This document shows, one piece after another, positions 12,968 to 42,900 of a DNA stretch of 64,000 nucleotides (its first letter is position 1; every line of letters begins with the position of its first letter). The notes beneath the pieces are model-generated. The model did no database searches. It was not told the origin of the DNA and was given only the letters and a program-made list of their open reading frames with translations. This DNA comes from an uncultured Gammaproteobacteria bacterium. GTDB taxonomy: Bacteria > Pseudomonadota > Gammaproteobacteria > JABCZS01. Both the position numbers and the translations under genes were made by a program. Location: contig CAWKDC010000001.1 of assembly GCA_963848305.1 (NCBI GenBank), positions 288,001-352,000 of the forward strand, written 5' to 3'.

Positions 12968-12991
12968 TTTGTAAACGTGAAAAATGCACCC

Positions 12992-13705
12992 CTACACTTT
13001 GATGATCACACTCATGACAAACGCTAATATATTCATCATGGTCCAAAACAATACCATGGCAGACGGAAAGGGATAAAACAAAACCAGAAAAACAATGGCC
13101 ATCGCATATAAAAAGTATTTTTCGTTTGTCTTTTTCATCAAAAAGGTTGATAACATTGAGACGGCTGTCATCACAAAAGGCAAGATAGGATCAGGCAAGG
13201 ACAGATCCTCTATCCAAAGAAGTGAAGCCCCCTCCAACTCAGGCATTTTCCACAAGACATTAAAAATGGCGACCTGAATAGGTAATTGCACAGCAGGGCC
13301 AATCATGGGTTTCATGCCATAAAAAGGGGTGATACCTAATTCTTTGTATTCAGCCATGATGAGATGATGTGCTTCTTCCCCATCGTATTGTTTTTTGATC
13401 TCGTGAAGCTTCGATTTTAAAATCGCTGCATAGTGATCGTTCGTGCGTTGCATCTTTTCGACCCAGAATTGTAGCGGTAAAAAAATGACTTTAAAAATAA
13501 TTGCCAAAACAATAATAGCAATACCCCAATGATTCCTGAGTAATCCGCCTAATACGATAAAAGCCGTTTCAATAGCGCGACACACCACAGCCAACCATGG
13601 CCACAAATAATCATATTGCGCTGAGGATTGCACCAAATCATTCGCTTGAGCAACACCTGAAAAAATCAAGTAAAAAAATAAAGTCAAAAAAGCTATTGGT
13701 CGCAT
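12992..13705 (-). CDS. Short YidC/Oxa1-family insertase paralogue lacking the large periplasmic domain
   Basis: WGIAIIVLAIIFKVIFLPL, coiled-coil hairpin, VQLPI, LWIEDLSLPDP, FPSAMVLFW; probable start ATG 13705 (MRPIAF...). Confidence 0.8.
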   Translation of the reverse strand: MRPIAFLTLFFYLIFSGVAQANDLVQSSAQYDYLWPWLAVVCRAIETAFIVLGGLLRNHWGIAIIVLAIIFKVIFLPLQFWVEKMQRTNDHYAAILKSKLHEIKKQYDGEEAHHLIMAEYKELGITPFYGMKPMIGPAVQLPIQVAIFNVLWKMPELEGASLLWIEDLSLPDPILPFVMTAVSMLSTFLMKKTNEKYFLYAMAIVFLVLFYPFPSAMVLFWTMMNILAFVMSVIIKV

Positions 13706-15387
13706 GAAATACCACCCAAATCCGAACATTTTAAAATCCAATCTTGTGGATTACGTACATCACCATCAATCGTATATATTGTCAAAGGTGGAAGCTTACT
13801 GTCTCCCCAATAGGTTTCATCAAACTCATAGAAAATGAACTCTCTTACCCTTTTGTCAGTTTCTTGTAGTGCGATTATATTTTTACCGTTATTTAATAGT
13901 GGCATTTTCATGGCAGCCAATATTGTATTCGGGATATCATTGAGTGAGACAGGTGCATTCGATGTGCGCATAGGCCCAGCTGAATGAAATGGTTTGATAA
14001 AAAGTGTCGCGAGTGCAGTTGAATAATGTTTCTGACTGATTGGAGTCTGTATCAAATTTTGTTTCTGCGATTCAGATAGATAGTTTGAGCCATGATCAGA
14101 TGAAATGATGATCAACGAATTATCATAAATATCCGCTTTTTTCAGATTTTCCAACAATGAATCAATATGATTGAAAGCACATTGGGCCTGGTCTGTTTTA
14201 CCAATCAAACCTCTTCGAGAGGCCTTTGTGATACGCAATTCACAATCCTTACCAAGGACAGCTGGACTGTGGGTGATCATCGAATGATAAAATTTATAGG
14301 TTGGGTTGATATCGTCAACTGAGAATTGATCATTAAAATATTGAAATGCCAAATGATTCAAGCCGCCGAGTGTTGTTTCATGGCTCGGATTGACGAAATA
14401 TCGCCTGATTATCCAGTGGTCATCATGGTAAATGACAGGTTTAAGTATGTCAGGCACTGCTTTGAAAAGGCTATAATCGAGAAGTAAAAACGCGCTCTTA
14501 TCCGGGGATAGCTCTGGTTGCGAGATACAATTTTTAATGTGGGATTTATTGCAGTAATAACCCATTGTATATATCGAAGTTGAAAAATTACTCTGCTCTA
14601 ATTGCGTCGTCAGTGGATTATGACTAAGGACATCATCGAGGAACTGATTTTTATCACCATTGTTCTTATAAACCTCACCAGTCAACATCGCTGGAATAGC
14701 CATGTTAGTTGAGCGATAATTAGACGTTGTATTTGGAAAAAAGATAAATCCAGACAAATGTTGAATGAACGATGGATCAGTTTCAATCAAATGCTCAATC
14801 ACAGTTGACTGTTGCTCATCAAGCACAATGTGGATAATATTTTGGTGTTTTGAAAATGTGGCAAAGTCCTCTGGCATAAAGTTTGATTGATACTGACGCC
14901 TGTTGAGTTTATCTATATTGTTGATAACTTGAAATCCAGTGAATATCATGACTGCGCATAACAAACCCGTCACTGCCTGATACATCACGAAGTGTATCTT
15001 TTTGCAAAAGATAATGGCAGATATTAGCATAATAATCCAAATGGAAGCTTGAACAATTGATTTGACTGAAAATGGCTCAATCGACAACCCGCGGCCATCA
15101 AATGCGCCATAACTACCGAAGAGAAAATTTGCTGTTATCCAGCATAGTACTGCAAACATCGCTAAAAAAGCAAAATAGCGATCTCGAAATCCTGAATAAG
15201 GAATGATGGCAGGCAAAAAGGCCATGAGAAAGAGAATTACAAATGAAATACCCAATGTATAACAAAGTGATTTTAAGGGGATGGAAAACTCGTCTATATT
15301 ATTTATATAGATATCTACAGGCATCTGTATGCAAATCACAAATGCCAAGAATAAGCCTGCTGAAATAATAGGCAATATTTTTCTCAT
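13693..15387 (-). CDS. Membrane-anchored alkaline-phosphatase-superfamily phosphotransferase (LtaS/EptA/sulfatase-like)
   Basis: About 5 N-terminal TM helices; NIIHIVLDE, YRSTNMAIP (Thr nucleophile position, no CxPxR), ITHSP, ISSDHG. Confidence 0.8.
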   Translation of the reverse strand: MRKILPIISAGLFLAFVICIQMPVDIYINNIDEFSIPLKSLCYTLGISFVILFLMAFLPAIIPYSGFRDRYFAFLAMFAVLCWITANFLFGSYGAFDGRGLSIEPFSVKSIVQASIWIIMLISAIIFCKKIHFVMYQAVTGLLCAVMIFTGFQVINNIDKLNRRQYQSNFMPEDFATFSKHQNIIHIVLDEQQSTVIEHLIETDPSFIQHLSGFIFFPNTTSNYRSTNMAIPAMLTGEVYKNNGDKNQFLDDVLSHNPLTTQLEQSNFSTSIYTMGYYCNKSHIKNCISQPELSPDKSAFLLLDYSLFKAVPDILKPVIYHDDHWIIRRYFVNPSHETTLGGLNHLAFQYFNDQFSVDDINPTYKFYHSMITHSPAVLGKDCELRITKASRRGLIGKTDQAQCAFNHIDSLLENLKKADIYDNSLIIISSDHGSNYLSESQKQNLIQTPISQKHYSTALATLFIKPFHSAGPMRTSNAPVSLNDIPNTILAAMKMPLLNNGKNIIALQETDKRVREFIFYEFDETYWGDSKLPPLTIYTIDGDVRNPQDWILKCSDLGGISCDQ

Positions 15388-16505
15388 GTGAGTATCTCCA
15401 GTAAGGCGCGAGCACCTTTTTGGCCGCTTTGATGGATGTTGAATACATGAGATTCACGCATGATAGTCATTTTTTCTACCAAATGATTGTTGATAAGCAA
15501 CCTTTCTACATATTCTGTCAGCGCATTGAGTTTATCCAATGGGACAATTTCTCCGATTCTTTCGCGTATAAAATCTTCGAACGGAACAATGGCCAGATCA
15601 GTGTATCTCGGATTATTGATCTTCCTTTCTATATCTAAAAAAAGCACAGGTTTACCAAGACCGAAAGCATAATCCAGTGCCGCGCCAGACCAATCACTGA
15701 TCATCAACGATGAAAGATGCAATGATGATTGATCAGCCATATTGGTTTCAAATGAAAATAATAGATTACTGGCATATTTCTCTTTAATCTTTTTTAGAAT
15801 TCCGGAAGAAAACTTGACAGTTTGGGGATGCGGACGCAATGTGACTTTATAACCATGCTTCAGCAACTGCCCAATCACTTGATCACCTATAGTTTCTATC
15901 ATGCCATGCTGCCCCCACGAGGGGGCAATCAATATATGCTTTGGTTCTGGCATAATGTTGTGTGATTGTGCATTTGCTAAAATAGCATCTAGCCTTCCAT
16001 AGCCATGTTCAACTAATTTTTTTGGCTTCAACTGATGCAGTTTTTCCAAAGTGCGAATTTCATCAACATGATGAGGACCTGCGCAAAAAATAGTATCAAA
16101 ATGATCGAAAGCACCAGGACGGTACACCATATGGCAGCTAACCAATGCATGATGAACATAAACATAGTGAACAGGGTATCGGGAGCGTTTAACTTGAAAA
16201 TTGTCTAAATCAGGCATCGTCATGATCATGACATCTGTATCAATATTAGAGAATAACCAGTTCCTGAGAAATCCTTCGTCCAAGTAAAAAATGGTCAGGT
16301 TTGGATGATCAACCTCAAATGCGGGATCATCTAATCCTGACGTGATATAGCAAACAGGAATATCACTTAGGATCAAAAATGATCTTAATAGGCTTTCCAA
16401 GTGCGGCCAATTTGATTTCCCCTCGGAATAAAAAACAATGCGACGCCTAGATTTAGGCAATTGCATGAATGTCGCTATATCAAAGATTGATCGAAAAAAA
16501 CTCAC
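15384..16505 (-). CDS. CDP-glycerol glycerophosphotransferase (TagF/TagB)-family protein
   Basis: HHAL, GYGRLD, ILIAPSW, LRPHP, MISDWSGAALDY motifs. Confidence 0.85.
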   Translation of the reverse strand: MSFFRSIFDIATFMQLPKSRRRIVFYSEGKSNWPHLESLLRSFLILSDIPVCYITSGLDDPAFEVDHPNLTIFYLDEGFLRNWLFSNIDTDVMIMTMPDLDNFQVKRSRYPVHYVYVHHALVSCHMVYRPGAFDHFDTIFCAGPHHVDEIRTLEKLHQLKPKKLVEHGYGRLDAILANAQSHNIMPEPKHILIAPSWGQHGMIETIGDQVIGQLLKHGYKVTLRPHPQTVKFSSGILKKIKEKYASNLLFSFETNMADQSSLHLSSLMISDWSGAALDYAFGLGKPVLFLDIERKINNPRYTDLAIVPFEDFIRERIGEIVPLDKLNALTEYVERLLINNHLVEKMTIMRESHVFNIHQSGQKGARALLEILT

Positions 16506-17262
16506 TTAAATCTCCTGAAGCATATAATTGCTCGTACAGTTTCAAATCATCGACAGAATCAACTTCTAGCCAGCCATTTTTAACAGGAATAGCTTTGATT
16601 TTCCATCCAGCATTTATCAATGATTGAAGAAAGCTTGTCATGTACATTTGATCAAATTGTTTACCGTCGTAAATTGCTTGTTTATCTAATCGTTCATAGA
16701 AATCGATCATTTCAGGGATTCGACCTGCTTTGATTTTGATCAACCCTGTGTATTGCCCTTGAATATCGTTGAATGATGCTGGTTTCTTACCGAGCTCTTT
16801 CACGAGACCATCCTCATCCATTTTAAATGATTCAGCGTCCGACAGCGGATCTTCAAATCGAAGTGACCAATAAGATTTCCAATCAATATCACACATAATG
16901 CTTATCTCAGCATCTGATGCAAGAATAGCTTTTAAATTTTCTGATTGATATATGATATCACCATAGGAAATCAGCAAATCATCCTCACCTTTCAAGTAAT
17001 CCATCGCTGAAAACAAAGTTGCAACCATATTGGTTGTTTCAAAATGCGGATTAACAGAACAAACATAGCCGTGATGCATTATCTGATCAGCGCAATACCC
17101 TCCCACAACATGGATATTTTTCACGCCACAGTCTTGCAAAACACCAGATTGCCAAGCCAAAAGAGATTTCCCTAAAAAAGGAACCAGGCACTTAGGTCGA
17201 TTATTTGTTAAAGGCCTTAATCGTGTCCCCTGCCCCGCTGCTAAAATAATCGCGCGTGTCAT
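16480..17262 (-). CDS. CTP:phosphoglutamine cytidylyltransferase-like NTP transferase (Cj1416/LicC family)
   Basis: IILAAGQGTRL..PKC, TNMV, ISYGDI, WSLRFEDPLSDAE, MYMTSFLQ, WLEVDSVDDL match remembered Cj1416 motifs. Confidence 0.85.
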   Translation of the reverse strand: MTRAIILAAGQGTRLRPLTNNRPKCLVPFLGKSLLAWQSGVLQDCGVKNIHVVGGYCADQIMHHGYVCSVNPHFETTNMVATLFSAMDYLKGEDDLLISYGDIIYQSENLKAILASDAEISIMCDIDWKSYWSLRFEDPLSDAESFKMDEDGLVKELGKKPASFNDIQGQYTGLIKIKAGRIPEMIDFYERLDKQAIYDGKQFDQMYMTSFLQSLINAGWKIKAIPVKNGWLEVDSVDDLKLYEQLYASGDLSEFFSINL

Positions 17263-17861
17263 GCTATTAATCTCCTGAGCAATGCGATGTCTTCTTCGCT
17301 TTTTGTCGATTCACGCTCTGGGTGCCACATGATACCTGTAATATTGTATTCAGGATGAATAAAAGCTTCGATGGAACCATCCTTATGGATAGCTGTCGGC
17401 ACCAAGACCCTAGAAAGTTGTTCCGGGTACATTCCAAAGTCATGATAGCTATTGACGTCTCTTGCGTGATCCTCTGCCCACGCATTACTGAATAAAACTT
17501 CATGACGTGTGAGTTTATGTCCAGCCAGCTTAACAAGCGTACCGCCGAAATATCGATTCAATGTTTGCATGCCTCGACAAAATCCTACGATGGGAATATT
17601 TTTATTGATCGCCCAATCTATCAACGCAAACTCGAAAACATCTCGTGTCGCATCATCATCACCGCCTGTGAAAAAAATGGCTGAGAGATTTAATGATTCT
17701 GCATAGGGTGCTGCTAAAGACCCAGACAAAGTGGCTAAAGGAACAGGAAAAAAACCCAATGCCTCAGCTACTTGCCACCAGCGCCTGTCTAAACTGTCTC
17801 TTTGTTCATGGTATTGCTCTACCACTGTGACTCTTTGGGTGAATCCAATTTTTTTGCTCAT
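17259..17861 (-). CDS. Gamma-glutamyl-CDP-amidate hydrolase-like class I glutamine amidotransferase (peptidase C26, Cj1417-like)
   Basis: IGFTQRV..YHEQRD.L...W, GFCRGMQ (Cys), NSYH, MWHPER (His-Glu); start 17861 overlaps upstream stop as ATGA. Confidence 0.88.
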   Translation of the reverse strand: MSKKIGFTQRVTVVEQYHEQRDSLDRRWWQVAEALGFFPVPLATLSGSLAAPYAESLNLSAIFFTGGDDDATRDVFEFALIDWAINKNIPIVGFCRGMQTLNRYFGGTLVKLAGHKLTRHEVLFSNAWAEDHARDVNSYHDFGMYPEQLSRVLVPTAIHKDGSIEAFIHPEYNITGIMWHPERESTKSEEDIALLRRLIA

Positions 17862-20836
17862 GATAATCCCCGTACTTGTTGCAGACCACAATCTAAATGC
17901 AGAAAACTTGATCGACATAACTCTTCATACAATTTATCCCCTACACCAATCGCAGCAGGAATTGCCATTTCAGCTGCGCGAATGGCCATATGGGAATTTG
18001 CCCCACCATATTGTGTGATGAGACCTGCTATTCCATGCGAGAAAAGCCAATCATATCCTGGATCAGCCTGGGGAACCAAGACAATCGACCCGCGAAGATT
18101 GTCATGTTTATCATGTGAAACAGCCGGGGCAGTCACCGTCATGGTGGTGATAAAATTAGGTTGAGAGGTCATTCGCTCAAAACAATAAAAATCATTTTCC
18201 GAAACAATCAGTTGTGGCAGCTCAACCATTTTAGTCAGTTTCGCATTTCTACGACGTTGATCAACAATCTCTTGAATCATCGATACATTCAATTGACCTG
18301 ATCTTATTTGCTTAAACTCATCGAACTGCAAATATGAAATTGACTCACGCGAAAGCCCTACAAGTTTTCCAAAATGAGAAAAATGGTCTAGTGCAATACT
18401 CAGATTTTTCGTAAATTCAAACTTGACAGACTCGCGTGATTTGATAGCGCTTATCAAATAATTCACAAAGCACGAGAAAGAGATTGGCGATCCCAGATCA
18501 TTCAATACTGTCTGAATTGCATATTCAGCATTTTTTGAAAAAATAAATTGTTTATGTTGCGGTTTCTCATGAATCAATTTTGTTTTACGCAATAGATACC
18601 GTTCAGCTTCCTCCCAATACGCATGTTGTGTAATTTCATATGTTCCTGGCCTGAGGTGCCCATATCGCTGGCAAAAAACATTAACATCTAACTGATCATT
18701 TGCGACCTGATATGCATCTTCTTCAAATTCGCCAGCCACAGTTTTGATGGCATTCAAAAAGTCCTGCTTATCTTCAACAGATAAAATATGCGCTCTCACA
18801 AGACTATTGATAAAACTCATAGCGACAAAACCTGCTCTAGCTGCATGAGCAAATGCAAGTGTACCGAATTGGCGACAGTCCTCCAACAGTAAAATGGCTT
18901 TGTCGAGCGGTTCTAAATCACTACCCAGTATCAGTTTTCTTCTTTCCTCAAGTTGATTTAAGCTCGATATGTCATTATCAAGTCGTGTTAACGCTTGACG
19001 GGTGAGGATTTTCAATCCGTCTGACAACGCGATGATCTCATCGTGAGTGATGCCCAGTGGCGTTAATCTTGCTTTAGCTTCCTGCTCAAAGGTTGGTGTC
19101 CACACTGTAAAGGCAACAGCAAATTCAAGTTTGTCGTGAAGGTGTGGATTAGTGCTCAGAATGGACAGGTATGCATTGACAAGTCTTTTGGCACAATCAT
19201 GGCTCACTGTTTTTGGGATAAATGAATTAAGACTGGCTCGAATATCAACATAAGGTTGACCACAAAATGACACCAAAAGAGGCTGCGGGCGAACATCACG
19301 GTATCCGAACTGTGCACGTTGCGTTGCCCATACATCATCTGTAATCAGGAAACGATAAAGACTATAAGCCAGTGGTCTTGGGCGGATTCCAATAATTTCT
19401 GCGGGATTCCAATCGGGCATAACGCCAAATAATGTTTTTTCTCCTAACATAAATGGAGTAGGAATCTGAAGTGTCTGGAAAAGCTTTTTACTTTGATGAA
19501 GAGAGTCAGCAATATCGTTATCGCTGATATCATAATTGCTGTGATCCACTGTGATTGGACGCACCTGAAAAATATGCACAGTGCCACGTTTATCAACGGC
19601 AAATTCCACATCAAAGCGATCATAATCTAAGAGCACTTCGAGCTCACGAACAGCCCCGACAACGGGCGGCAGCTCTGGCGCAATATCAACGACAGATGAC
19701 GTTTGATCGCGGTTAATCAATACGGTTCTCAGATGTGCGCCATGACCAGAAGTGACAGATTCTGTCGAGCAAGATTGGTCGTCGAAGTTGATGCGATAAT
19801 AAGGTGAACCTGTTTCAAGTCCACGTGTAAATACGACACCCGAAAATTGAACGTCTGATAAAAAAGATTGAATGAGAATTTGATCTGAATGAGAAGATTC
19901 ACCAGATCGATACGATGCCACAACACTTTCAATACCGACATAAACATCTTGATAATTTCCGCTATCCACATTAAGAATGCTGGTGTAACAACCTGCATTT
20001 GATTTTGACCAATTGTCTTCAGATTTAGAACTGCTTCGAATAACGATTGGTGAATCATGAAAGGATTTTTTTATTTCACAAATAATGTCATTGGGTTTCT
20101 GAAGCCATTCTTTCACAGTGAAGCAACATTGCTCACCAATCACAGACTTTTTGACAAGTGGAGATAGACGGCTGAGGGTTTCTGCTTTCGTACCTAAAAT
20201 AAAATGCGCGATGTCTTTCGGGGAATTGAACTCAGTCCAGGCGCCTTCAGCATTGATCGATTGAATGCTGAAACCCTTTTTTGACAGAAATGTGAGCAAA
20301 TCCGTTAAATGCTGTCCAACCCATCGTTCATTCAAATCGATCATGTATTGACTTGCAAGAGGAGAAAATTTTAGCAGTCCTGTAAATTCCATTATTTGAC
20401 CGTCAATAGACATGACCTCTGCGCGCTTGATATCTTCTGGATCACGGTTGTCGTAACGATGTCGCCACTGTGCATCGTAAACCCAAACAACATCAGCCGT
20501 TTGTTCATATGCTTGACGAATGACCTCCGGTCGAAAAATGGTATCTGCGTAGGAAACAATGGTTGTGGCGGCGCGCCAGGGTGCCTGAAAAAGTGTATGG
20601 AGCACTGAATGTGACTGCCACTCCGGTACAACGATATAATGCAATTGTGGATAAGCAGCAATAATATCATCAATATGATACCCGCCTAAAAAATGAACTT
20701 TGGGCTGAGGCAATACGGACAAACTGTGTATCTGCCAATCTAACGCACGCTTCTGGATGCCGATTTCTTTGAGGGCAGATGGCTTCTCTCCAGAAACAGG
20801 TCGTCCTGCTCCTAGAAAGAAAACATCACAGGCTAT
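17858..20836 (-). CDS. L-glutamine kinase-like PEP-utilising/ATP-grasp enzyme (Cj1418-like) with extra N-terminal NTP-transferase domain; start uncertain
   Basis: TKAETL, IRSSSKSED, SNAG, FGVMPDWNPAEIIG, GHLRPGTY, ADPGYDWLF, GGANSHMAIR (phospho-His). Frame stays open upstream of 20722 to 20866 and encodes DVFFLGAGRP...KPSAL. Confidence 0.88.
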   Translation of the reverse strand: MACDVFFLGAGRPVSGEKPSALKEIGIQKRALDWQIHSLSVLPQPKVHFLGGYHIDDIIAAYPQLHYIVVPEWQSHSVLHTLFQAPWRAATTIVSYADTIFRPEVIRQAYEQTADVVWVYDAQWRHRYDNRDPEDIKRAEVMSIDGQIMEFTGLLKFSPLASQYMIDLNERWVGQHLTDLLTFLSKKGFSIQSINAEGAWTEFNSPKDIAHFILGTKAETLSRLSPLVKKSVIGEQCCFTVKEWLQKPNDIICEIKKSFHDSPIVIRSSSKSEDNWSKSNAGCYTSILNVDSGNYQDVYVGIESVVASYRSGESSHSDQILIQSFLSDVQFSGVVFTRGLETGSPYYRINFDDQSCSTESVTSGHGAHLRTVLINRDQTSSVVDIAPELPPVVGAVRELEVLLDYDRFDVEFAVDKRGTVHIFQVRPITVDHSNYDISDNDIADSLHQSKKLFQTLQIPTPFMLGEKTLFGVMPDWNPAEIIGIRPRPLAYSLYRFLITDDVWATQRAQFGYRDVRPQPLLVSFCGQPYVDIRASLNSFIPKTVSHDCAKRLVNAYLSILSTNPHLHDKLEFAVAFTVWTPTFEQEAKARLTPLGITHDEIIALSDGLKILTRQALTRLDNDISSLNQLEERRKLILGSDLEPLDKAILLLEDCRQFGTLAFAHAARAGFVAMSFINSLVRAHILSVEDKQDFLNAIKTVAGEFEEDAYQVANDQLDVNVFCQRYGHLRPGTYEITQHAYWEEAERYLLRKTKLIHEKPQHKQFIFSKNAEYAIQTVLNDLGSPISFSCFVNYLISAIKSRESVKFEFTKNLSIALDHFSHFGKLVGLSRESISYLQFDEFKQIRSGQLNVSMIQEIVDQRRRNAKLTKMVELPQLIVSENDFYCFERMTSQPNFITTMTVTAPAVSHDKHDNLRGSIVLVPQADPGYDWLFSHGIAGLITQYGGANSHMAIRAAEMAIPAAIGVGDKLYEELCRSSFLHLDCGLQQVRGLS

Positions 20837-21048
20837 TGTGGGGTTGTTTTCTCGGGTTCTTTTTTTTTAGATTTCACAAATAGGGATTTTATTTTGTACC
20901 AATACCCCTTGACAGCCATCACTGATGCCACCAATAACCCAGCCAGGGCTGACAAAATGGCACTGCCCGAACCCGGGTCAATGTAGGCCATCGCAGGTGT
21001 GGCGAATAAACTGAGACATATTGTCGCCATGAGAAATCGTGTATGCAT
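20833..21048 (-). CDS. Small membrane protein: signal peptide, YIDPGSGS motif, TM helix, basic tail
   Basis: MHTRFLMATICLSLFATPAMA-YIDPGSGSAILSALAGLLVASVMAVKGYWYKIKSLF...; AGGGG RBS at 21056-21060. Confidence 0.8.
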   Translation of the reverse strand: MHTRFLMATICLSLFATPAMAYIDPGSGSAILSALAGLLVASVMAVKGYWYKIKSLFVKSKKKEPEKTTPQ

Positions 21049-21127
21049 TGTATTGCCCCTGAAATCCTTTAACACTCTGCAATATTACATGCAATGTGCC
21101 TAAAATACAAGGCGGATATAACGTAAG

Positions 21128-27270: not shown

Positions 27271-28454
27271 ATGGATATGAGAACAAAATGTTTTAAAATT
27301 GCTTTTCTAACGCTGTGCTTATGTTTTATGGGGATCCTCTCAGGACAGGCAGCAACCTCATTAGAAGATAAAGCCAAAAGCTGGATGAAACGTAATGGCA
27401 TTCCTGGGGCAGCCATTGTTGTCTACGACAATGGCAAAATCAAAAAATACTCTTTCGGATATGCCGACAGGGAGAATAAAAAACCAGTCACAGAAGACAC
27501 CATTTTCGAGATCGCCTCTCTTACCAAAATTTTCACGGCTGTTTTATTAGCGGGAGAAATCAATAGCGGCAGCATGAAACTCAGCGATTCCGTGACAAAA
27601 TATGTTTCCGACATCACTCCATCGTCTCGCAATAAATTCAATCAAATCACGCTTGAAAACTTGGCCACACACACTTCAGGCCTTCCTTTCAATGTTCCAA
27701 GAAGCATTAACTCAAGAACTAAATTGGCGAAGTATTTGTCCTCATGGAAGAATCCTGCATCGGTAGGCGCATCCTGGTTATATTCTAATGTCAATTTAGG
27801 GCTGATAGGTTATGCGCTTGAAAAGGAAAGTCAAAAATCGATTTATGATTTATATGCTGAAAAAATTTTACATCCACTCGGCATGCGCACCAGTAACGCA
27901 ATGATTCCTGATGGCTTGCTGTCCTTTTATGCACAAGGATACAACATGGCGGGCAATCCAGCACCACGACGCAACATGAAAGAGTGGATCAAACCGCCGA
28001 ACAGCGATTGGATATTCCCAGCAACAGGTGCGCTCAAATCAACGCCACGCGATATGGCACTGTTCTTGAAAGCTGCTTTGCGATTACCCGGTACGCCTGC
28101 ATACATTGCTGATGCGATGAAATTAACACAAACCACTTTTGTTCAAACCACTCGTTTCCAACAAGGATTAACGTGGATTATTCACCCAGATCCTGTCAAA
28201 AACAAAACTAAATTATTATCTGCTAAAATCAAGGGCGAGCCTTTCCAGCGAATGCCTACACTAAAGGTGATATATTTGATGGAAATGCGTTGATGGAAAA
28301 AACAGGTGCGTCTGGTGGTTTTCGTGCCTATATTGCTGTTATCCCCAATCAGCAAAAAGGAGTTGTCGTGATGGCGAATCGTTACATCACAAGCACCGAA
28401 TTGGTTCACATGGGGAGATGGGTTTTGCTTAGCAACGACATTTTGATGCAATAA
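27271..28454 (+). CDS. Class C beta-lactamase-like serine hydrolase; frameshift near 28245
   Basis: Signal peptide, SLTK (SxxK), YSN; the KTG motif (MEKTGASGGFRAY) is in a shifted frame ending TAA 28452-28454. Confidence 0.82.
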
Positions 28455-33935: not shown

Positions 33936-36900
33936 TCAAATTGGGCAATAGACAAATGCGGAGGTGCCTACCGTGGTTTCCAAGGAGGCAGTGATGGGCC
34001 ACTGTGCACTGCTAGGCGTAATGGTTAGATCGCGGTTCAAGCTACCCGATTCACAGGGCTGATAATCTAATACAATGTTACAAGAAGCGAGTGCATCTAG
34101 GGTTTGCCCATCCGTACAGGTTGAAGCGTTATCGATGATCACAGCCGTTTGCCCTAACGAATCATTATTCACCAGGTCGACATTGATCACCGTATCCGTT
34201 ATACCTTGATTTTCGATGGAATAGGTAACTTGGATAGGGTTTGTACAATTGGCTGTACTCAAATTATCGGGTGTGGTTGGTGTACTTGTAAAAACAATGC
34301 CACAGTTATCTAAACTCGCATTGCAACGCTCTTGAGGTGTAGTAGCTAGCGCATGGGTGCGTGCACCCTTTTTGGTTGAAGGGCAAGTAGGAAGGCTGCT
34401 GCTCACTAAATTTGCTGTACCACCTGCAGTAGTGACTGTTACACCCACCTGCCCTGCTGGATCTGGAGGCGTAATCGCTGTGATCGTTGTCCCATCACTT
34501 GAAACGCTCAGGACTGTTGCAGATTTACCTCCGATGGTGACGACAGAACCCGCAGTAAATCCTGCCCCCATTAATGTGACCTCTGTTCCGCCTGATGTAC
34601 TGCCATAATCGGGTGCGATAGAAGCAATGGACGGAACGTAGTTGAACAACACTGGAGCGGAAGTACCCCCAGCTGAGTTCACGGTCACACTGGCCTGCCC
34701 TTGCCCCACGGGACTGATGACAGTTATTTGAGCATCGCTGATGAATGTGAACGGAATGCTTGTATCATTCCACGTCACACTCGTTGCTTGTGTAAAATTA
34801 ACCCCTTGAATGCTCACAGATGTCCCGCCACTGGGCGAACCTGCATTAGGACTGAGTGAAGCAATTGAAGGGGCATTGTAAGTGAAGACATCATTCGGAT
34901 TGATTGCACTGCTTCCACCAGGTGTTGTCACTTGAACATCAACAGGTCCCGCACCCGACGGTGAGACTGCCGTGATGGTGCTGTCATTGACAACCGTAAA
35001 TGATGCTACAGGTTGATCCCCAAAATTCACATCTGTTACGTCTGTGAAGTCGCTACCTGAAATTGTGACCGATGTTCCTCCTGCTGCTGGACCCGAGTTG
35101 ACACTCAAACCCGTGACAACTGGAACAGCATAATAGATGAATTGATCGACAGAGGAAGTCGCACTCGTGCCATTGCTATTCGACACTGTCACATCCACTG
35201 TGCCTGTGCCTGCTGGTGCAGTCGCCACAATGCCCGTTGTGCCTGAGCTGGACTGCACGACCGCTTCTACTTCACCAAAATATACAGTGGTACCAGAGGT
35301 AAAACCTGTTCCGGTGATCGTGACTGCAGTTCCCCCATTGAGCGACCCACCAGAAGGACTCACAGAAGACACAGAAGGCGTATTATTGTATGTGTAACTA
35401 CTGTAGGTTGCTGAACCTACGCTATTGGTCACAGTCAGTGTCACAGCCCCCGCCGACTGTGGAGGAGCGATCGCTGTGATACTATCGTCACTGTTCACAG
35501 TATATGAAGTTGCATTGATAGTACCAAATTGCACACCTGAAGCACCTGATACCGTTAAAAATCCTGTGCCGATAATCATGACAGGTGTTGTTCCCCCAAC
35601 AGAACCGGCATCAGGTGAAATCGATGTGATGGTCGGCGCTTCAGTATAAGTGAATTCACTGGCCGATGTTTCGGGTGTTGTTCCTGAACTATTCGTGACA
35701 GTAACATTCACCACGGTTGAGCCATTGATCAGCAGGGCGGTTGATGGCGGCGCAATGGCCGTGATCTGTGTATCGCTGTGAATCACAAATGATGTCGCAG
35801 GTGTTGTGCCAAAATTCACTGCGGAAGCCGTTGTGAAACCTGTTCCTGTGATCAATACAGAGGTTCCACCCGTAATAGAAGTGGCTGGCGGATTAAGTGC
35901 CGTGATAGTAGGAACCGTATCGAAAGTATACGCATTGGCTAACGTATAGGACCCCACATCATTCGTGACGGTGATGCCCACCTGCCCCACCGCATGTGCA
36001 GGGGTGATCGCTGTGATTTGTGTGTCACTGTTCACAGTGAATGAAGAAGCTGCAACAGAACCAAACTGCACATCCGTCGCGCTTAAAAATCCTGTGCCAC
36101 TGATCACAACAGATTGATCACCTGTGCTAGGCCCTCCATTTGGCGTCACTGCAGTCACCAAAGGAAGATAGGAAAACTGATCAGCTGAAGTTGTTGGGCT
36201 CGTTCCTCCGGCCGTTGCCACAGTGATATCGACTTGACCCGTGCCAGCAGGTGCAACTGCCATGATTGCTGTATCAGTATTCGTCAACACCGTACCGGGA
36301 TTATCCTCGCCAAAATAAACGTCTAAGGCATTGCTCATCCCTACCCCTGTGATTGTCACCACTGTCCCACCAGCGCCACTGCCTACATTAGGCGTGATCG
36401 CAGTCACCACAGGCACATATGACAATTTTGCAGCGTTTGAAATGGCGTTTGTTCCATCAGCATTCGCAATGGTAACGTAAACGGCACCTGTCCCAGCTGG
36501 AATGCTGTCAATCACTATGCTGGTCTCCGTCATTGATGCAGGAGTCACTAAATTGCTTCCCAAATAAACGGTTGTGCCTGCAATAAATCCTGTCCCATTG
36601 ATTGTCAAGCTCACGTTTCCGGTGGCAGGAACTGCGTTGGGACTCAAGCTTGTGATGCTTGGAGAAGAATTATATGTAAAAGCATTGGTTGAATTCCCTG
36701 TTCCAGTGACATTGTCGACAGAAACTGTCACTGGACCATTCGTGCCCGGTGGTGTAATGGCAGTGATTCGCGTATCACTTGTTACTGTAAAGGAGGTTGC
36801 ATCGATGCCTCCAAATTGAACTGATGTCGCCGTTAAAAACCCTGTGCCCTTGATGAGCACGACTGTGCCACCTGCATTGGATCCTGCAGGAGGACTGACA

Positions 36901-39900
36901 GTGGTAATAACTGGGATATCATCATACGTATAAACACTTGCGGATGAAATGGCACTCGTCCCATTGCTATTAACCACGGTGATGTTAACCGTGCCTGTTC
37001 CAGGCGGCGCGCTTGCCACCATGATGGTGGTGTCTGTTTTAGAAGTCACTGTTGCCAGCGTGTCACCAAAATAGACAGCTGTTTCATCTAAAAAACCCGT
37101 GCCTGTGATTTCAACATCTGTTCCACCATGAGAAGATCCCGCATTCGGACTCACACCCGTCACAGATGGCGTATCATCATAAGTATAACCGTTGGTAAGG
37201 GTGCCTGTGTCAATGATATTCGTGATCGCAACATCGACTGCTCCTGCAGCATGTTCGGGAGTAATGGCAGTTATCTGTGTATCACTGTTGATCGTGTATG
37301 AGGTTGCATTGAGCCCTCCAAATTCAACAGATGATGCTGTTAAAAAGCCTGATCCGGTGATGACCACTGATGTTGCCCCACCAATTGAACCTGCCGGTGG
37401 ATTGACAGAGGAGATCGTTGGCGGATTTTGGTATGTGTAGTCGGTTGTGTTAGAGATAAAATTTGTAGCAGCACTTGTGCCTGAAGGGTTTGTCACTGTG
37501 ACACCCACCGTCGTGCCTGCCGTACCCGGAGGCGCTATTGCCGTGATTTGTATGTCGCTGTTCACTGTGAATGATGTCGCGGCGTTGCTCCCAAAATCAA
37601 CATCTGTAGCTGTTAAAAATCCAGTGCCCAGGATCGTCACTATGTCACCGCCTGCAGGCAAACCGCCTATCGGTGAAACGGAAACCACTGTGGGTATACC
37701 GTCATAAGTAAATCCGTTTGTTAACGTCCCTGAACCTGTGCTATTCGTCACAACAATATTGACCACACCTGCAGCATGTGCGGGTGCAGTCGCTGTGATT
37801 TGTGTATCACTATTAATCGAATATGCAGTTGCCGCTGTGCTTCCGAATTGAACAGAGGTGGTGGTTAAAAACCCCGCCCCTAAGATCGTCACAGAAGTGC
37901 CTCCCGAAATCGGGCTTGATGATGGGCTGGCAGCAGTTACTATGGGTATGCCATCATATGTGAACCCATTCTCTAAAGTACCAGAGCCCGTGCTGTTCGT
38001 CACAACAATATTGACCACACCAGCAGATTGTGCCGGCGATGTTGCTGTAATTTGTGTATCGCTACTCACTGTGTATGACGTTGCAGCAGTACTGCCGAAT
38101 TTAACAGCTGTGGTGGTTAAAAATCCTGTCCCTGTGATCGTCACAACAGTTCCGCCGGCAATCGGGCCTGATGCTGGACTGACCGCTGTCACTGTCGGCG
38201 TTGCATCATAGGTAAAGCCATTGGTTAATGTGCCTGAGCCAGTGCTATTCGTGACTACAACATTCACGACGCCTGCAGATTGCGCCGGCGATGTCGCTGT
38301 AATTTGTGTATCGCTATTCACTGTGTATGACGTTGCCGCAGTACTGCCGAATTTAACAGCAGTGGTGGTTAAAAATCCTGTCCCTGTGATCGTCACAGAT
38401 GTACCACCCGCAATCGGGCCTGATGCTGGACTCACCGCAGTCACTGTCGGTGTGGCATCATAAGTAAAACCATTCGTTAATGTGGCAGAAGCAGTGCTAT
38501 TCGTGACTACAACATTCACCACACCTGCAGATTGCGCCGGTGTTGTCGCAGTGATACTTGTATCACTGTTGACAGTGTATGACGTTGCATTTGTTGTCCC
38601 AAATTGAACTGCTGTGGTGGTTAAAAATCCTGTCCCTGTGATCGTCACAGATGTACCGCCCGCAATTGGACCTGATGCGGGACTCACCGCTGTCACTGTC
38701 GGTGTGGCATCATATGTATACTGATTTCCAGCGCCAGTACTGCTTGTGCCCACAGGTGTTGTGACCGTCACATTCACTACCCCTGCCACACCAGCAGGTG
38801 CTACTGCGGTGATTTGTGTACCGCTGTTCACCGTATAACTTGTGGCATTATTTGCCCCGAACTTAACCGCTGCCGCCCCACTCAAATTATAAAAATCTGT
38901 GCCCGTGATCGTCACTGAAGTACCACCTGCAATAGAGCCAGCTTTAGGCGACAATGTTGTCACTGTTGGCACATTCTGATAAGTAAACTTGTCTGCACTA
39001 GAGGTCGAACTAGTTCCTGATGGATTCGTCACAGTGATATCCACTGTTGTACCATCTGTGCCTGAAGGAGATGTTGCTGTGATTTGTGTATCGCTGTTCA
39101 CCGTGAATGATGCCGCTGCTGTACTACCAAATTTCACAACTGTACTTGTTAGAAATCCCGTCCCTGTGATCGTCACAACAGTTCCGCCGGCAGGGAGTCC
39201 TGCAATGGGCGAAATGGAAGTCACTGTCGGCGTTGCATCATAGGTAAAGCCATTGGTTAATGTGCCTGAGCCAGTGCTATTCGTGACTACAACATTCACG
39301 ACGCCTGCAGATTGCGCCGGCGATGTCGCAGTAATTTGTGTATCGCTATTCACTGTGTATGACGTTGCCGCAGTACTGCCGAATTTAACAGCAGTGGTGG
39401 TTAAAAATCCTGTCCCTGTGATCGTCACAGATGTACCACCCGCAATCGGGCCTGATGCGGGACTGACCGCAGTCACTGTTGGTGTTGTGTCATACGTAAA
39501 CCCATTCGTTAATGTACCTGAGCCAGTGCTATTCGTGACTACAACATTCACCACACCTGCAGCATGTGCCGGTGCAGTCGCTGTAATTTGTGTATCACTG
39601 TTGACGGTGTATGACGTTGCAGCAGTACTACCGAATTTAACAGCAGTGGTGGTTAAAAATCCTGTCCCTGTGATCGTCACAGATGTACCGCCCGCAATTG
39701 GACCTGATGCGGGACTCACCGCTGTCACTGTTGGTGTGGCATCATATGTATACTGATTTCCAGCGCCAGTACTGCTTGTGCCCACAGGTGTTGTGACCGT
39801 CACATTCACTACCCCTGCCACACCAGCAGGTGCTACTGCGGTGATTTGTGTACCGCTGTTCACCGTATAACTTGTGGCATTATTTGCCCCGAACTTAACC

Positions 39901-42900
39901 GCTGCCGCCCCACTCAAATTATAAAAATCTGTGCCCGTGATCGTCACTGAAGTACCACCTGCAATAGAGCCAGCTTTAGGCGACAATGTTGTCACTGTTG
40001 GCACATTCTGATAAGTAAACTTGTCTGCACTAGAGGTCGAGCTAGTTCCTGATGGATTCGTCACAGTGATATCCACTGTTGTACCATCTGTGCCTGAAGG
40101 AGATGTTGCTGTGATTTGTGTATCGCTGTTCACCGTGAATGATGCCGCTGCTGTACTACCAAATTTAACAGCTGTACTTGTTAGAAATCCCGTCCCTGTG
40201 ATCGTCACAACAGTTCCGCCGGCAGGGAGTCCTGCAATGGGCGAAATGGCAGTCACTGTCGGCGTTGCATCATAGGTAAAGCCATTGGTTAATGTGCCTG
40301 AGCCAGTGCTATTCGTGACTACAACATTCACGACGCCTGCAGATTGCGCCGGCGATGTCGCTGTAATTTGTGTATCGCTATTCACTGTGTATGACGTTGC
40401 CGCAGTACTGCCGAATTTAACAGCAGTGGTGGTTAAAAATCCTGTCCCTGTGATCGTCACAGATGTACCACCCGCAATCGGGCCTGATGCTGGACTCACC
40501 GCAGTCACTGTCGGTGTGGCATCATAAGTAAAACCATTCGTTAATGTGGCAGAAGCAGTGCTATTCGTGACTACAACATTCACCACACCTGCAGATTGCG
40601 CCGGTGTTGTCGCAGTGATACTTGTATCACTGTTGACAGTGTATGACGTTGCATTTGTTGTCCCAAATTGAACTGCTGTGGTGGTTAAAAATCCTGTCCC
40701 TGTGATCGTCACAGATGTACCGCCCGCAATTGGACCTGATGCGGGACTCACCGCTGTCACTGTCGGTGTGGCATCATATGTATACTGATTTCCAGCGCCA
40801 GTACTGCTTGTGCCCACAGGTGTTGTGACCGTCACATTCACTACCCCTGCCACACCAGCAGGTGCTACTGCGGTGATTTGTGTACCGCTGTTCACCGTAT
40901 AACTTGTGGCATTATTTGCCCCGAACTTAACCGCTGCCGCCCCACTCAAATTATAAAAATCTGTGCCCGTGATCGTCACTGAAGTACCACCTGCAATAGA
41001 GCCAGCTTTAGGCGACAATGTTGTCACTGTTGGCACATTCTGATAAGTAAACTTGTCTGCACTAGAGGTCGAGCTAGTTCCTGATGGATTCGTCACAGTG
41101 ATATCCACTGTTGTACCATCTGTGCCTGAAGGAGATGTTGCTGTGATTTGTGTATCGCTGTTCACCGTGAATGATGCCGCTGCTGTACTACCAAATTTAA
41201 CAGCTGTACTTGTTAGAAATCCCGTCCCTGTGATCGTCACAACAGTTCCGCCGGCAGGGAGTCCTGCAATGGGCGAAATGGAAGTCACTGTCGGCGTTGC
41301 ATCATAGGTAAAGCCATTGGTTAATGTGCCTGAGCCAGTGCTATTCGTGACTACAACATTCACCACACCTGCAGCATGTGCCGGTGCAGTCGCTGTAATT
41401 TGTGTATCACTGTTGACGGTGTATGACGTTGCAGCAGTACTGCCGAATTTAACAGCAGTGGTGGTTAAAAATCCTGTCCCTGTGATCGTCACAGAAGTGC
41501 CGCCAACAATTGGGCCTGATGCGGGACTGACCGCAGTCACTGTTGGTGTTGTGTCATACGTAAACCCATTCGTTAATGTACCTGAGCCAGTGCTATTCGT
41601 AACCACAACATTCACGACGCCTGCTGATTGCGCCGGTGTTGTCGCAGTGATACTCGTATCACTGTTCACTGTGTAAGATGATGCCGCAGTACTGCCGAAT
41701 TTAACAGCAGTGGTGGTTAAAAATCCCGTCCCTGTGATCGTCACAGAAGTGCCGCCCGCGATCGGGCCAGATGCGGGACTGACTGCTGTCACTGTTGGTG
41801 TTGTGTCATACGTAAACCCATTCGTCAATGTACCTGAGCCAGTGCTATTCGTAACCACAACATTCACGACGCCTGCTGCTTGCGCCGGTGTTGTCGCAGT
41901 GATACTTGTATCACTGTTCACTGTATGTGACGTTGCCCCAGTACTACCGAATTTAACGACGGTGGCGGTTAAAAACCCTGTCCCTGTAATCGTCACAGAT
42001 GTGCCACCCGCAATTGGGCCAGATGCGGGACTCACTGCAGTCACTGTCGGCGTTGCATCGTAAGTAAAACCATTTGTGTCAGTGACCGTCCCTGCAGAGG
42101 CAGTGAGCACAACATTGACAGCCCCCGCTGCATGGCCGGCGTAGTCACCTTAACACTTGTACTGGTATTACTGCTGATACTAGTTCCGGCAGTGCCTCCA
42201 AAAGCAATCGAACTGGTACCCGTTAAGTTGGTTCCTGCAATCGTCACAACAGTCCCCCCTGCTAACGGACCCGCATTCGGAGTAATAGAGGTGATCGTAG
42301 GTGCAGCGTTATCAAGCATGACAGGCTTAATAGGCGCCAACGTGGTAGTCTCTTCTGAGATCGCCAAAACTCGATCCATATAAATGGAGGGCGTCTTTAC
42401 CCATTGCGCAAGATCAGGCTGAGCAAATACACCAGATAAAGTGTAAGGAGGAATCGAAGTAGATTTTCCACTTAAAAAGCTGACATTCAATCCATAAGTA
42501 TTGCTGTTCGGCGTATCATTACTTGAAATCAAACGCTGCGCATTGGCAATGATTTCCATCCCGAAAGATTGCGCAAAAGAAGGCTTGTATGCAAGCTCAA
42601 GATCATAAGTGTCGTAAATAGCACGATTTTCAGCAGCAATCGAAAACTTCATGTTATCGCCGATCAATTGATTAAGTTGCAGCGCTGCTCCTAATCTTTT
42701 ATCGTCATCATCACTATCATCAGTTAATTTATGATTGTAGCTCACATCATCATAATACAATGTTGCATCTAATGAAGTGCTCGGCGATAAACGGAGCGTT
42801 GTTCCCAGATCAAGCCCTTGGCTGGTTGCGCCCACAATATGACGCTGATTGATATAGGCTAATTCATGGGAGATGAAATTCACAGAAGACAAATGTTGAT

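Follow-up and report, generated by a model that had tools for sequence, protein, structure and literature searches.

A membrane micro-protein with an invariant octapeptide as a candidate two-sided adaptor of a putative envelope-modification module

What can a protein of only 71 residues do when it consists, after its predicted export, of little more than one membrane helix flanked by the octapeptide YIDPGSGS and a basic tail? The question is raised by a gene located in a stretch of 64,000 nucleotides (the window hereafter) of an uncultured Gammaproteobacteria bacterium (assembly GCA_963848305.1, contig CAWKDC010000001.1, positions 288,001 to 352,000), where it is followed by genes for a putative phosphoramidate donor pathway, a TagF-like phosphotransferase, an LtaS/EptA-like transferase and a YidC paralogue. 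The original prediction, made by analogy with the DltX protein of teichoic acid modification, was that the Tyr or a Ser of the octapeptide carries a phospho-group to the LtaS-like enzyme or, alternatively, that the peptide scaffolds the complex. It is the scaffolding option that natural gene fusions favor. We propose that the micro-protein is a two-sided adaptor, which would anchor a cytoplasmic phosphotransferase and present its octapeptide to machinery on the outer face of the membrane, and we give this interpretation about an even chance of being correct.

The micro-protein and its family

The longest frame of the micro-protein gene extends to a GTG at 21075; since AGGGG is found 7 nucleotides 5' of the ATG at 21048, we favor this ATG as the likely start (Table 1). 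The encoded protein starts with the successive regions MHTRF, LMATICLSLFA and TPAMA, i.e., the basic n-region, the hydrophobic h-region and the small residues at -3 and -1 of a Sec-type signal peptide, which here ends in PAMA. Predicted cleavage would leave a mature chain of ~50 residues (22-71), whose basic tail begins KGYWYKIKSLFVKSKKK and has the sequence KGYWYKIKSLFVKSKKKEPEKTTPQ. Every element announced for this open reading frame (ORF) is present in it: the AMA cleavage site, YIDPGSGS, a single transmembrane (TM) helix and a basic tail. Its description as the first gene of the operon is correct in one respect, as the next co-directional gene within 400 nucleotides is a module gene in 60 of the 80 loci compared below, and less so in another, as ygjP ends 80 nucleotides upstream on the same strand in the window. 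A scan of the window for promoters and terminators yielded nothing above shuffled sequences (33 found vs. 28.7 expected). The genome (1.89 Mb in 4 contigs, 92% complete) holds a single copy of the gene.

Relatives are numerous. In a word-indexed database search, 295 of the 296 scored candidates of 39-125 residues match at E<=0.01. A profile built from 30 members, when searched against 1.84 billion cluster representatives (clusters at 50% identity), matches 6,744 clusters at E<=1e-3 (568 of them at E<=1e-10), and the best 150 matched clusters are all 52-124 residues long. The micro-protein gene is thus real and not a chance ORF.

The motif is present in 260 of 269 family proteins, over which position percentages were computed, with numbering along the mature chain from Tyr1. 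Five octapeptide columns are almost fixed (Y1 100%, D3 100%, P4 99%, G7 100%, and S8 97%), the variable ones being I/L2, G/S/A5, and S/T6 (S or T in 98%). When 55 homologues from widely separated phyla are aligned, none of the eight residues varies (55 of 55); motif conservation had been set beforehand as a test capable of refuting the original prediction, and the motif is conserved in many phyla. The stretch that precedes it is variable in sequence among the 80 loci, while it stays hydrophobic and has basic residues at its start. Immediately before the motif, Pro is found at position -4 in 70% of the proteins and Ala at -3 and -1 in 84% and 95%, respectively. Because of these alanines and of the conserved motif that starts at Y+1, signal peptidase I is predicted to cleave at this site, leaving Tyr1 as the new N-terminus. 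Further along the chain, one face of the TM helix carries small residues (S12 86%, G16 93%, and A20 72%, or, more broadly, S/Q12, G16, and A/T/S20), which points to tight helix packing, and the tail is conserved at K26 (93%), W29 (94%), Y30 (91%), K31 (89%), and K33 (87%).

The family is broadly distributed. A pattern scan of one genome per species detected 324 relatives, and the 80 best genomic loci among them belong to Gamma- and Alphaproteobacteria, SAR324, Bdellovibrionales, Cytophagales, Patescibacteria, Latescibacterota, Acidobacteriota, Dadabacteria, Actinomycetota, Kiritimatiellae, Clostridia, and a Nitrosarchaeum; at least a dozen phyla are represented, one archaeon included. Marinicella litoralis KMM 3900 (L018) and Mesorhizobium zhangyense (L070) are among the carriers that are cultivable and harmless. 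About one in ten sampled Gammaproteobacteria genomes carries the family (38 of 400, representing 31 of 308 genera, a tally that includes the unpublished genomes G048 and G269), as do 17 of 401 sampled genomes of the phylum. Closer to the host, it is present in 2 of 12 genomes of the same order and was not found in two genomes of the same genus (95% and 99% complete). The host itself is best described as an uncultured Legionellales-like gammaproteobacterium, because no other protein is more than 81% identical to the RlmN of the window, and the nearest named relatives of this RlmN are those of Aquicella lusitana and A. siphonis (73-75%). Synteny with the same-genus genome G001 was considered as a guide to the borders of the island and dropped, as only three matches were available (ygjP, 59% identity; a class C beta-lactamase-like ORF of 340 residues, 68%; and a weak ABC-ATPase, 29%).

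Both the micro-protein family and its gene module appear to be undescribed. No Pfam or NCBIfam model matches the window micro-protein, and 30 family members scanned against Pfam at E<=1 returned sub-threshold membrane-helix noise only. A profile search of the PDB gave only a P450 (E 0.017) and ExbB (E 9.3), which we judged to be noise, and the ESM Atlas holds only clusters with the name "hypothetical protein". The strings YIDPGSGS, IDPGSGS, YIDPGTGS, and YIDPGSG were not found in the literature searched; of seven papers with "DPGSGS", the three listed are unrelated. Curated models are also lacking for the TagF-like, Sulfatase-like and X460 members of the module (see below). Finally, we found no publication describing the combination of phosphonate, cytidylyltransferase, glycerophosphotransferase, sulfatase and YidC genes in the literature searched.

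Natural fusions and gene neighborhood

The link between the micro-protein and a cytoplasmic enzyme emerged from a six-frame search of 400 sampled Gammaproteobacteria genomes, which gave 42 matches, four of them within open frames of 415-458 residues. The four proteins (L085, 410 residues; L086, 434; L087, 457; and L088, 433) have the same order: a signal peptide, the motif Y[IL]DPG[ST][GS]S, one helix and then, directly, a full TagF-like domain. L087 and L088 match Pfam PF04464, and L085 (residues 66-405) aligns with the 373-residue TagF-like protein of the window (residues 22-373) at E 1e-42. The octapeptide is kept in all four fusions, once as YLDPGTSS, and in each of these genomes it is the single octapeptide match, carried by the enzyme itself. 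In L085 and L088, the genes that follow the fusion encode YidC-like and Sulfatase-like proteins. A word-indexed search for longer fused forms returned only one protein, of 131 residues.

These fusions fix the topology. The soluble domain depends on cytidine diphosphate (CDP)-activated substrates and must therefore be cytoplasmic; with a single helix between this domain and the octapeptide, the latter lies on the outer face and the tail in the cytoplasm, which is the orientation originally predicted. The fusions also tie the tail to the TagF-like enzyme; by extension, the tail may bind this enzyme where the two are encoded by separate genes. In the 39 loci with a separate TagF-like gene, the tail KTYWYKIKSLF is strongly conserved and TM position 12 is S. 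In the 20 loci in which the partner is instead a soluble protein of ~460 residues, hereafter X460, TM position 12 is Q and the tail reads K.[YF]W.[RK]I..FF. The octapeptide is 100% identical in the two partner classes. In the four fused forms, where the TagF-like domain follows directly, the tail motif is degenerate.

The gene neighborhood was surveyed in the 80 best loci, over a span of 6 kb upstream to 9 kb downstream, by calling ORFs and grouping them into jackhmmer families seeded with the window proteins and with recurring neighbors. Sulfatase-family genes (LtaS/EptA-like, with five helices and an alkaline-phosphatase fold) are present in 57 of the 80 loci, YidC-like genes in 44, TagF-like genes in 40, a methyltransferase of ~218 residues (MT218) in 25, X460 in 21, and glutamine-kinase-like genes in about 20 (21 by tblastn and 18 by family labels). 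A soluble enzyme, either TagF-like or the methyltransferase-bearing X460, is encoded in 60 loci. When only the 41 loci whose flanks extend to 6 kb or more upstream and 9 kb or more downstream are considered, TagF-like or X460 is present in 37, the Sulfatase family in 34, and YidC-like in 28, and at least one of the three is present in 40, the exception being L059. The predicted linkage to alkaline-phosphatase-superfamily transferases is thus borne out; nevertheless, the closest-linked neighbor of the micro-protein is the cytoplasmic enzyme, ahead of the LtaS-like one. All Sulfatase-family neighbors have N-terminal TM bundles, and TagF-like and X460 proteins have no TM segment.

Donor genes differ among loci. 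L002 and L021 carry a cytidylyltransferase-phosphoenolpyruvate mutase fusion, a thiamine pyrophosphate decarboxylase and an iron-alcohol dehydrogenase, a set that matches the Fom1-type route to CMP-hydroxyethylphosphonate as outlined in PMC6697681. The core of the module is therefore constant and its donor module exchangeable, with phosphoramidate genes in the window, CMP-phosphonate genes elsewhere, and a methyltransferase in 25 loci. All recognizable donors would be phosphorus head groups activated with cytidine, as befits a TagF-like enzyme.

Several neighbors deserve a description of their own. L060 encodes an 893-residue fusion (11710-14388, +) of a YidC-like part (residues 29-215) and a Sulfatase-family part (419-738), beside the micro-protein and X460 genes, which suggests joint action of the insertase paralogue and the LtaS-like enzyme. 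X460 (L041:10167-11561 and 16 relatives) is highly conserved across phyla, with a mean column identity of 51%. Its C-terminal domain is homologous to MT218 (hhalign 94%) and has its best structural matches in MePCE, BCDIN3D, and DhpI, which are phosphate or phosphonate O-methyltransferases (Z 17.1-16.9), in a tie with generic methyltransferases. For its N-terminal 260 residues, Foldseek and VIA-align gave no fold match, as hits to the methyltransferase domain took up their lists; hhalign detected no kinship of this part with TagF-like proteins (probability 0.1%). Our impression is that its consensus presumably contains a kinase-like pattern, H/LxDxxxxN...IDxxxF, reminiscent of WbdD-like kinase-methyltransferase capping enzymes. 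Lastly, a protein of ~450 residues with a weak Formyl_trans_N match (L005:17042-18391, L012:9328-10680, L026:8509-9888, and L029:669-2048) is encoded between or beside the YidC-like and Sulfatase-like genes of glutamine-kinase-type loci and is absent from the window operon.

The operon of the window

Table 1. Coordinates of the micro-protein, its operon and other ORFs of the window.
Feature	Coordinates	Strand	Remarks
Micro-protein ORF	20833..21048	-	71 residues from ATG; stop codon 20833..20835
Signal peptide, residues 1-21	20986..21048	-	MHTRFLMATICLSLFATPAMA; n-h-c layout; predicted cleavage after AMA
Octapeptide YIDPGSGS, residues 22-29	20962..20985	-	predicted mature N-terminus, outer face
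Single TM helix, residues 30-46	20911..20961	-	AILSALAGLLVASVMAV; Kyte-Doolittle peak 2.11
Cytoplasmic juxtamembrane motif K-G-Y-W-Y-K-I-K-S-L-F and basic tail, residues 47-71	20836..20910	-	
954-residue protein, N-terminal nucleotidyltransferase-like part and Cj1418-type L-glutamine kinase-like body	17858..20722	-	
219-residue Peptidase_C26/glutamine amidotransferase, gamma-glutamyl-CDP-amidate hydrolase (Cj1417)-like	17259..17918	-	PF07722, E 5.9e-21
260-residue nucleotidyltransferase, candidate cytidylyltransferase (Cj1416 role)	16480..17262	-	NTP_transf_3, E 7.3e-15
373-residue soluble TagF-like CDP-alcohol phosphotransferase (Glyphos_transf)	15384..16505	-	PF04464, E 2.3e-9; no TM segment
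564-residue LtaS/EptA/PbgA-like enzyme, five N-terminal TM helices and outer alkaline-phosphatase-fold domain	13693..15387	-	Pfam Sulfatase, E 7e-9
249-residue short YidC/Oxa1-family paralogue	12992..13741	-	Pfam 60KD_IMP, E 2.4e-27
340-residue class C beta-lactamase-like protein	27271..28293	+	195 bits vs. cut-off 415
2,724-residue protein of choice-of-anchor-Z repeats	33936..42110	-	NF058597, 699.7 bits
813-residue fimbrial-usher-like protein	44516..46957	-	well below curated cut-offs
Three tandem ORFs, 649-650 residues	49164..55359	+	no NCBIfam match at E<=1e-10

Downstream of the micro-protein gene, residues 169-953 of the 954-residue protein match NCBIfam model NF004508 (962.9 bits vs. 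a cut-off of 501) together with Pfam PPDK_N and PEP-utilizers. We take this model to stand for the Cj1418 family, and with a score above its cut-off the protein qualifies as a Cj1418-type L-glutamine kinase. The next two assignments are less specific: the 219-residue protein scores 109.3 bits against NF045546, under the cut-off of 250, and the 260-residue protein matches only generic nucleotidyltransferase models of NCBIfam. These first three downstream genes resemble the kinase, hydrolase, and cytidylyltransferase of the Campylobacter Cj1415-Cj1418 route, which, according to PMC11800397, makes CDP-phosphoramidate 3'-phosphate from glutamine, ATP, and CTP. As Cj1418-, Cj1417-, and Cj1416-like genes are present, the donor of this operon is probably cytidine diphosphoramidate. 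No Cj1415-like (fourth) kinase was found in the window operon, the rest of the genome not having been searched, and no methyltransferase gene is present in the operon. The occurrence of the three-gene set (16480..20722, -) suggests that phosphoramidate decoration exists outside Campylobacter. At the other end of the operon, the 249-residue protein scores 94.9 bits against TIGR03592 (cut-off 84.3) and so matches the conserved five-helix core domain of the YidC/Oxa1 family.

The 564-residue protein is very distant from known transferases, although "LtaS-like" is a fair label for it. With five TM segments and a confident AF2 model (pLDDT 92.5, pTM 0.91), it has the five-TM bundle and outer alkaline-phosphatase fold of LtaS/EptA-type transferases. 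Its best Foldseek matches are PbgA (6xlp, E 6.5e-10), LtaS/LtaP, MCR-1, EptA, and sulfatases, with TM-scores of 0.31-0.41 to the known family. The best PDB match by sequence is LtaS (E 0.028), an SDHG stretch aligning with the GDHYG of LtaS. Among 55 homologues of the Sulfatase family, the mean column identity is 14%; D190, H373, and D431 are invariant, T227, H368, P375, and G433 are at least 90% conserved, and the conserved positions are mainly those taken as catalytic. From LtaS/EptA chemistry and the aligned SDHG stretch, we assume that T227 is the nucleophile and that the Asp and His positions form the metal site; on this assignment, the protein would have the Thr nucleophile and Asp/His metal site of such enzymes. 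It thus resembles LtaS, EptA, MCR-1, and PbgA in its five N-terminal helices, in its outer fold and, on that reading, in its Thr and metal-ligand positions. It differs in context: known members take the head groups of ordinary phospholipids, whereas this enzyme is co-encoded with cytoplasmic proteins that would make cytidine-activated phosphoramidate or phosphonate donors.

Co-folding of this enzyme with mature residues 22-71 of the micro-protein, using author-made alignments, gave weak support for an interaction, with a median ipSAE of 0.40 (runs of 0.44, 0.34, and 0.40) vs. 0.00 for the highest-scoring of three controls. Agreement between runs covers at least 55% of contacts, and partner pLDDT is at least 56. 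In calibration, 116 of 157 solved complexes reached the mark, as did 2 of 215 mismatched pairs; the passes at 0.60 or less comprise 18 of the 157 solved complexes and both of the mismatches that passed. The output came without a contact list.

Some other ORFs of the window were also noted. The 813-residue fimbrial-usher-like protein is encoded near the large choice-of-anchor-Z repeat protein. Near-equal length and spacing suggest that the three tandem ORFs are paralogues. The 340-residue protein, whose score lies below the cut-off, is therefore probably no true AmpC but a serine hydrolase or a relative of penicillin-binding proteins.

Adaptor, carrier or insertase client

How would a two-sided adaptor work? 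Export and predicted cleavage would yield a chain with its octapeptide outside, one helix, and a basic W-Y-K-I-K-S tail inside. The tail would hold the soluble TagF-like phosphotransferase at the membrane, where this enzyme may use cytidine-nucleotide-activated head groups, here probably cytidine diphosphoramidate. Helix and octapeptide would tie it to the LtaS/EptA-like transferase, to the YidC paralogue or to both, so that a membrane-bound intermediate could be made inside and used outside within one complex. The contact between octapeptide and LtaS-like enzyme, the chemistry of the transferred group, and the final acceptor are what we infer from this arrangement of genes. For tail-based recruitment, the closest working analogy is BcsF, a single-pass peptide whose cytosolic tail recruits BcsE and whose operon includes the alkaline-phosphatase-fold enzyme BcsG, with which BcsF makes no direct contact (PMC11470070). 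Both are small single-helix proteins co-encoded with an alkaline-phosphatase-fold membrane transferase and with a cytosolic protein recruited, or presumably recruited, by the tail; they differ in that BcsE is a regulator and not a phosphotransferase. To our knowledge, BcsF has neither a signal peptide nor a conserved outer motif. No sequence relationship between the micro-protein and BcsF was found, and the absence of Pfam and NCBIfam matches places it in no described family.

Several points weigh against this interpretation. The changes in tail and TM helix between partner classes would support a link with the partner, but the classes are confounded with phylogeny. An anchor alone leaves unexplained eight outer residues that are invariant from Proteobacteria to Patescibacteria, Actinomycetota, and Nitrosarchaeum. 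As an anchor needs no invariant tip, and as even the fusions retain theirs, an outer role of its own should be ascribed to the octapeptide. No universal outer partner is available for this role, since Sulfatase-family genes are missing from 7 and YidC-like genes from 13 of the 41 full-flank loci. If the octapeptide targets the LtaS-like enzyme, the likeliest target is the catalytic centre, because it is mainly there that this enzyme is conserved, and this leans towards a shuttle or acceptor. The co-folding signal is weak and came without contacts. Lastly, the adaptor is deduced from genes, and binding, cleavage, and expression of the micro-protein are all predictions. On the outer side, the octapeptide may dock on the LtaS-like enzyme, it may work with the YidC paralogue as a client or as part of a flipping device or, as pure speculation, it might bind something small and invariant, for instance a phosphate head group.

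The carrier role of the original prediction gives the octapeptide a chemical function: the Thr of the LtaS-like enzyme would move a phospho-head group to or from Tyr1, Ser/Thr6 or Ser8, and the octapeptide would pass the group on or keep it as an end product. In its fullest form, the octapeptide would be a reusable phosphoryl shuttle from phospho-Thr via Tyr or Ser to the envelope acceptor, counterpart to the acyl shuttle DltX, with phosphoramidate, methyl phosphate or hydroxyethylphosphonate as the group, the tail holding the donor-using enzyme and the YidC paralogue moving the intermediate. Transfer of this kind would be in keeping with the near-fixed hydroxyl residues at positions 1, 6, and 8, with an octapeptide whose invariance equals that of the Sulfatase-family positions taken as catalytic (D190, T227, H368, H373, and D431) and greatly exceeds that of all other positions in this family, and, weakly, with the co-folding score. 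Alkaline-phosphatase-fold transferases can modify Ser or Thr of proteins, as PptA does on pilin and EptC on FlgG. However, enzymes of the LtaS/EptA type normally pass the group straight from Thr to the acceptor and require no relay, the loci that lack a nearby Sulfatase-family gene are difficult to accommodate, and the catalytic domain of the fusions lies across the membrane from the motif, unlike in Dlt-type MBOAT fusions. We regard such transfer, and equally the full shuttle, as unlikely; that Tyr or Ser carries a phospho-group to the LtaS-like enzyme stays conjecture by analogy.

The analogy itself holds in part. DltX comes first in the dltXABCD operon (PMC5541007) and, according to PMC12148441, its invariant Tyr, within FXYXXF at an outer C-terminus, takes D-alanine from the MBOAT protein DltB to the SGNH protein DltD, the motif being fused to an MBOAT protein in related pathways. 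The micro-protein shares with DltX its small size, its membrane location, its place in a putative envelope-modification operon, an invariant outer Tyr, and a motif that is either free or fused to a pathway enzyme, this last feature counting for the carrier role. The two differ in motif, in its position (the mature N-terminus here, with a cytoplasmic C-terminus), in chemistry (an acyl ester vs. what would be phosphoryl transfer) and in partners (MBOAT and SGNH vs. TagF-like, YidC-like, and LtaS-like). The window operon, with its PPDK-like, C26, NTP-transferase, Glyphos_transf, Sulfatase, and YidC genes, holds no MBOAT or SGNH gene, and among the census loci an MBOAT gene was seen only in L018, further downstream. 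Given that motif, motif position, side of the C-terminus, and partner enzymes all differ, we rejected membership of the micro-protein in the DltX family.

A second alternative turns on the YidC paralogue, of which the micro-protein would be a dedicated substrate or with which it would form a device that flips a lipid-linked intermediate. M13 gp8 procoat combines a cleavable leader, a short acidic translocated stretch, a helix, and a basic tail in a mature protein of ~50 residues, and YidC-only substrates such as this one have acidic translocated loops. The micro-protein has the same layout, including an invariant D3, and is co-encoded with a YidC-family gene; it differs from procoat in that its family is cellular and occurs within enzyme operons of many phyla, with no phage context seen. 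The frequency of YidC-like genes in the census is in line with such a role, as are their position directly beside the micro-protein gene in several loci (L002, L017, L058, L067, and L080), the YidC-Sulfatase fusion of L060, and four full-flank loci with a YidC-like and no Sulfatase-family gene within the span (L014, L018, L019, and L026). Many loci of type B, the archaeal one included, nevertheless lack a YidC paralogue, and dependence on an insertase fails to explain eight invariant residues, which makes this alternative quite improbable in our view, more so than the carrier role. It would also be conceivable that the soluble transferase loads the octapeptide in the cytoplasm and that the loop is then translocated and consumed outside, which would account for the joint travel of cytoplasmic enzyme, micro-protein, and insertase. 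Cytoplasmic loading is unlikely, however, because the fusion genomes have no octapeptide match other than that on the enzyme, and this one emerges during translation ahead of the catalytic domain; in addition, the fused enzyme would be single-use, and one 71-residue protein would be spent per group. We consider this version very improbable. Finally, the lack of any family annotation might be taken to mean that the micro-protein is an unrelated small membrane protein, simply carried along in these operons; the module genes near 40 of 41 full-flank loci, the four fusions, and the extreme conservation of the motif leave this explanation the least credible of all.

Small membrane proteins are routinely missed by annotation, and this family amounts to thousands of clusters without a name. 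The micro-protein is the most recognizable marker of a conserved gene module, which joins cytoplasmic enzymes for rare phosphorus head groups, an LtaS/EptA-like transferase of the outer face, and a private YidC paralogue. The fusions provide a simple wiring diagram for this module, and the octapeptide a sharp handle for mutagenesis and mass spectrometry. If our interpretation is true, the module would represent a general means of adding phosphoramidate, phosphonate or methyl-phosphate groups to cell envelopes. Where such groups have been studied, in a few systems, they change charge, phage receptors, and the binding of antimicrobial peptides.

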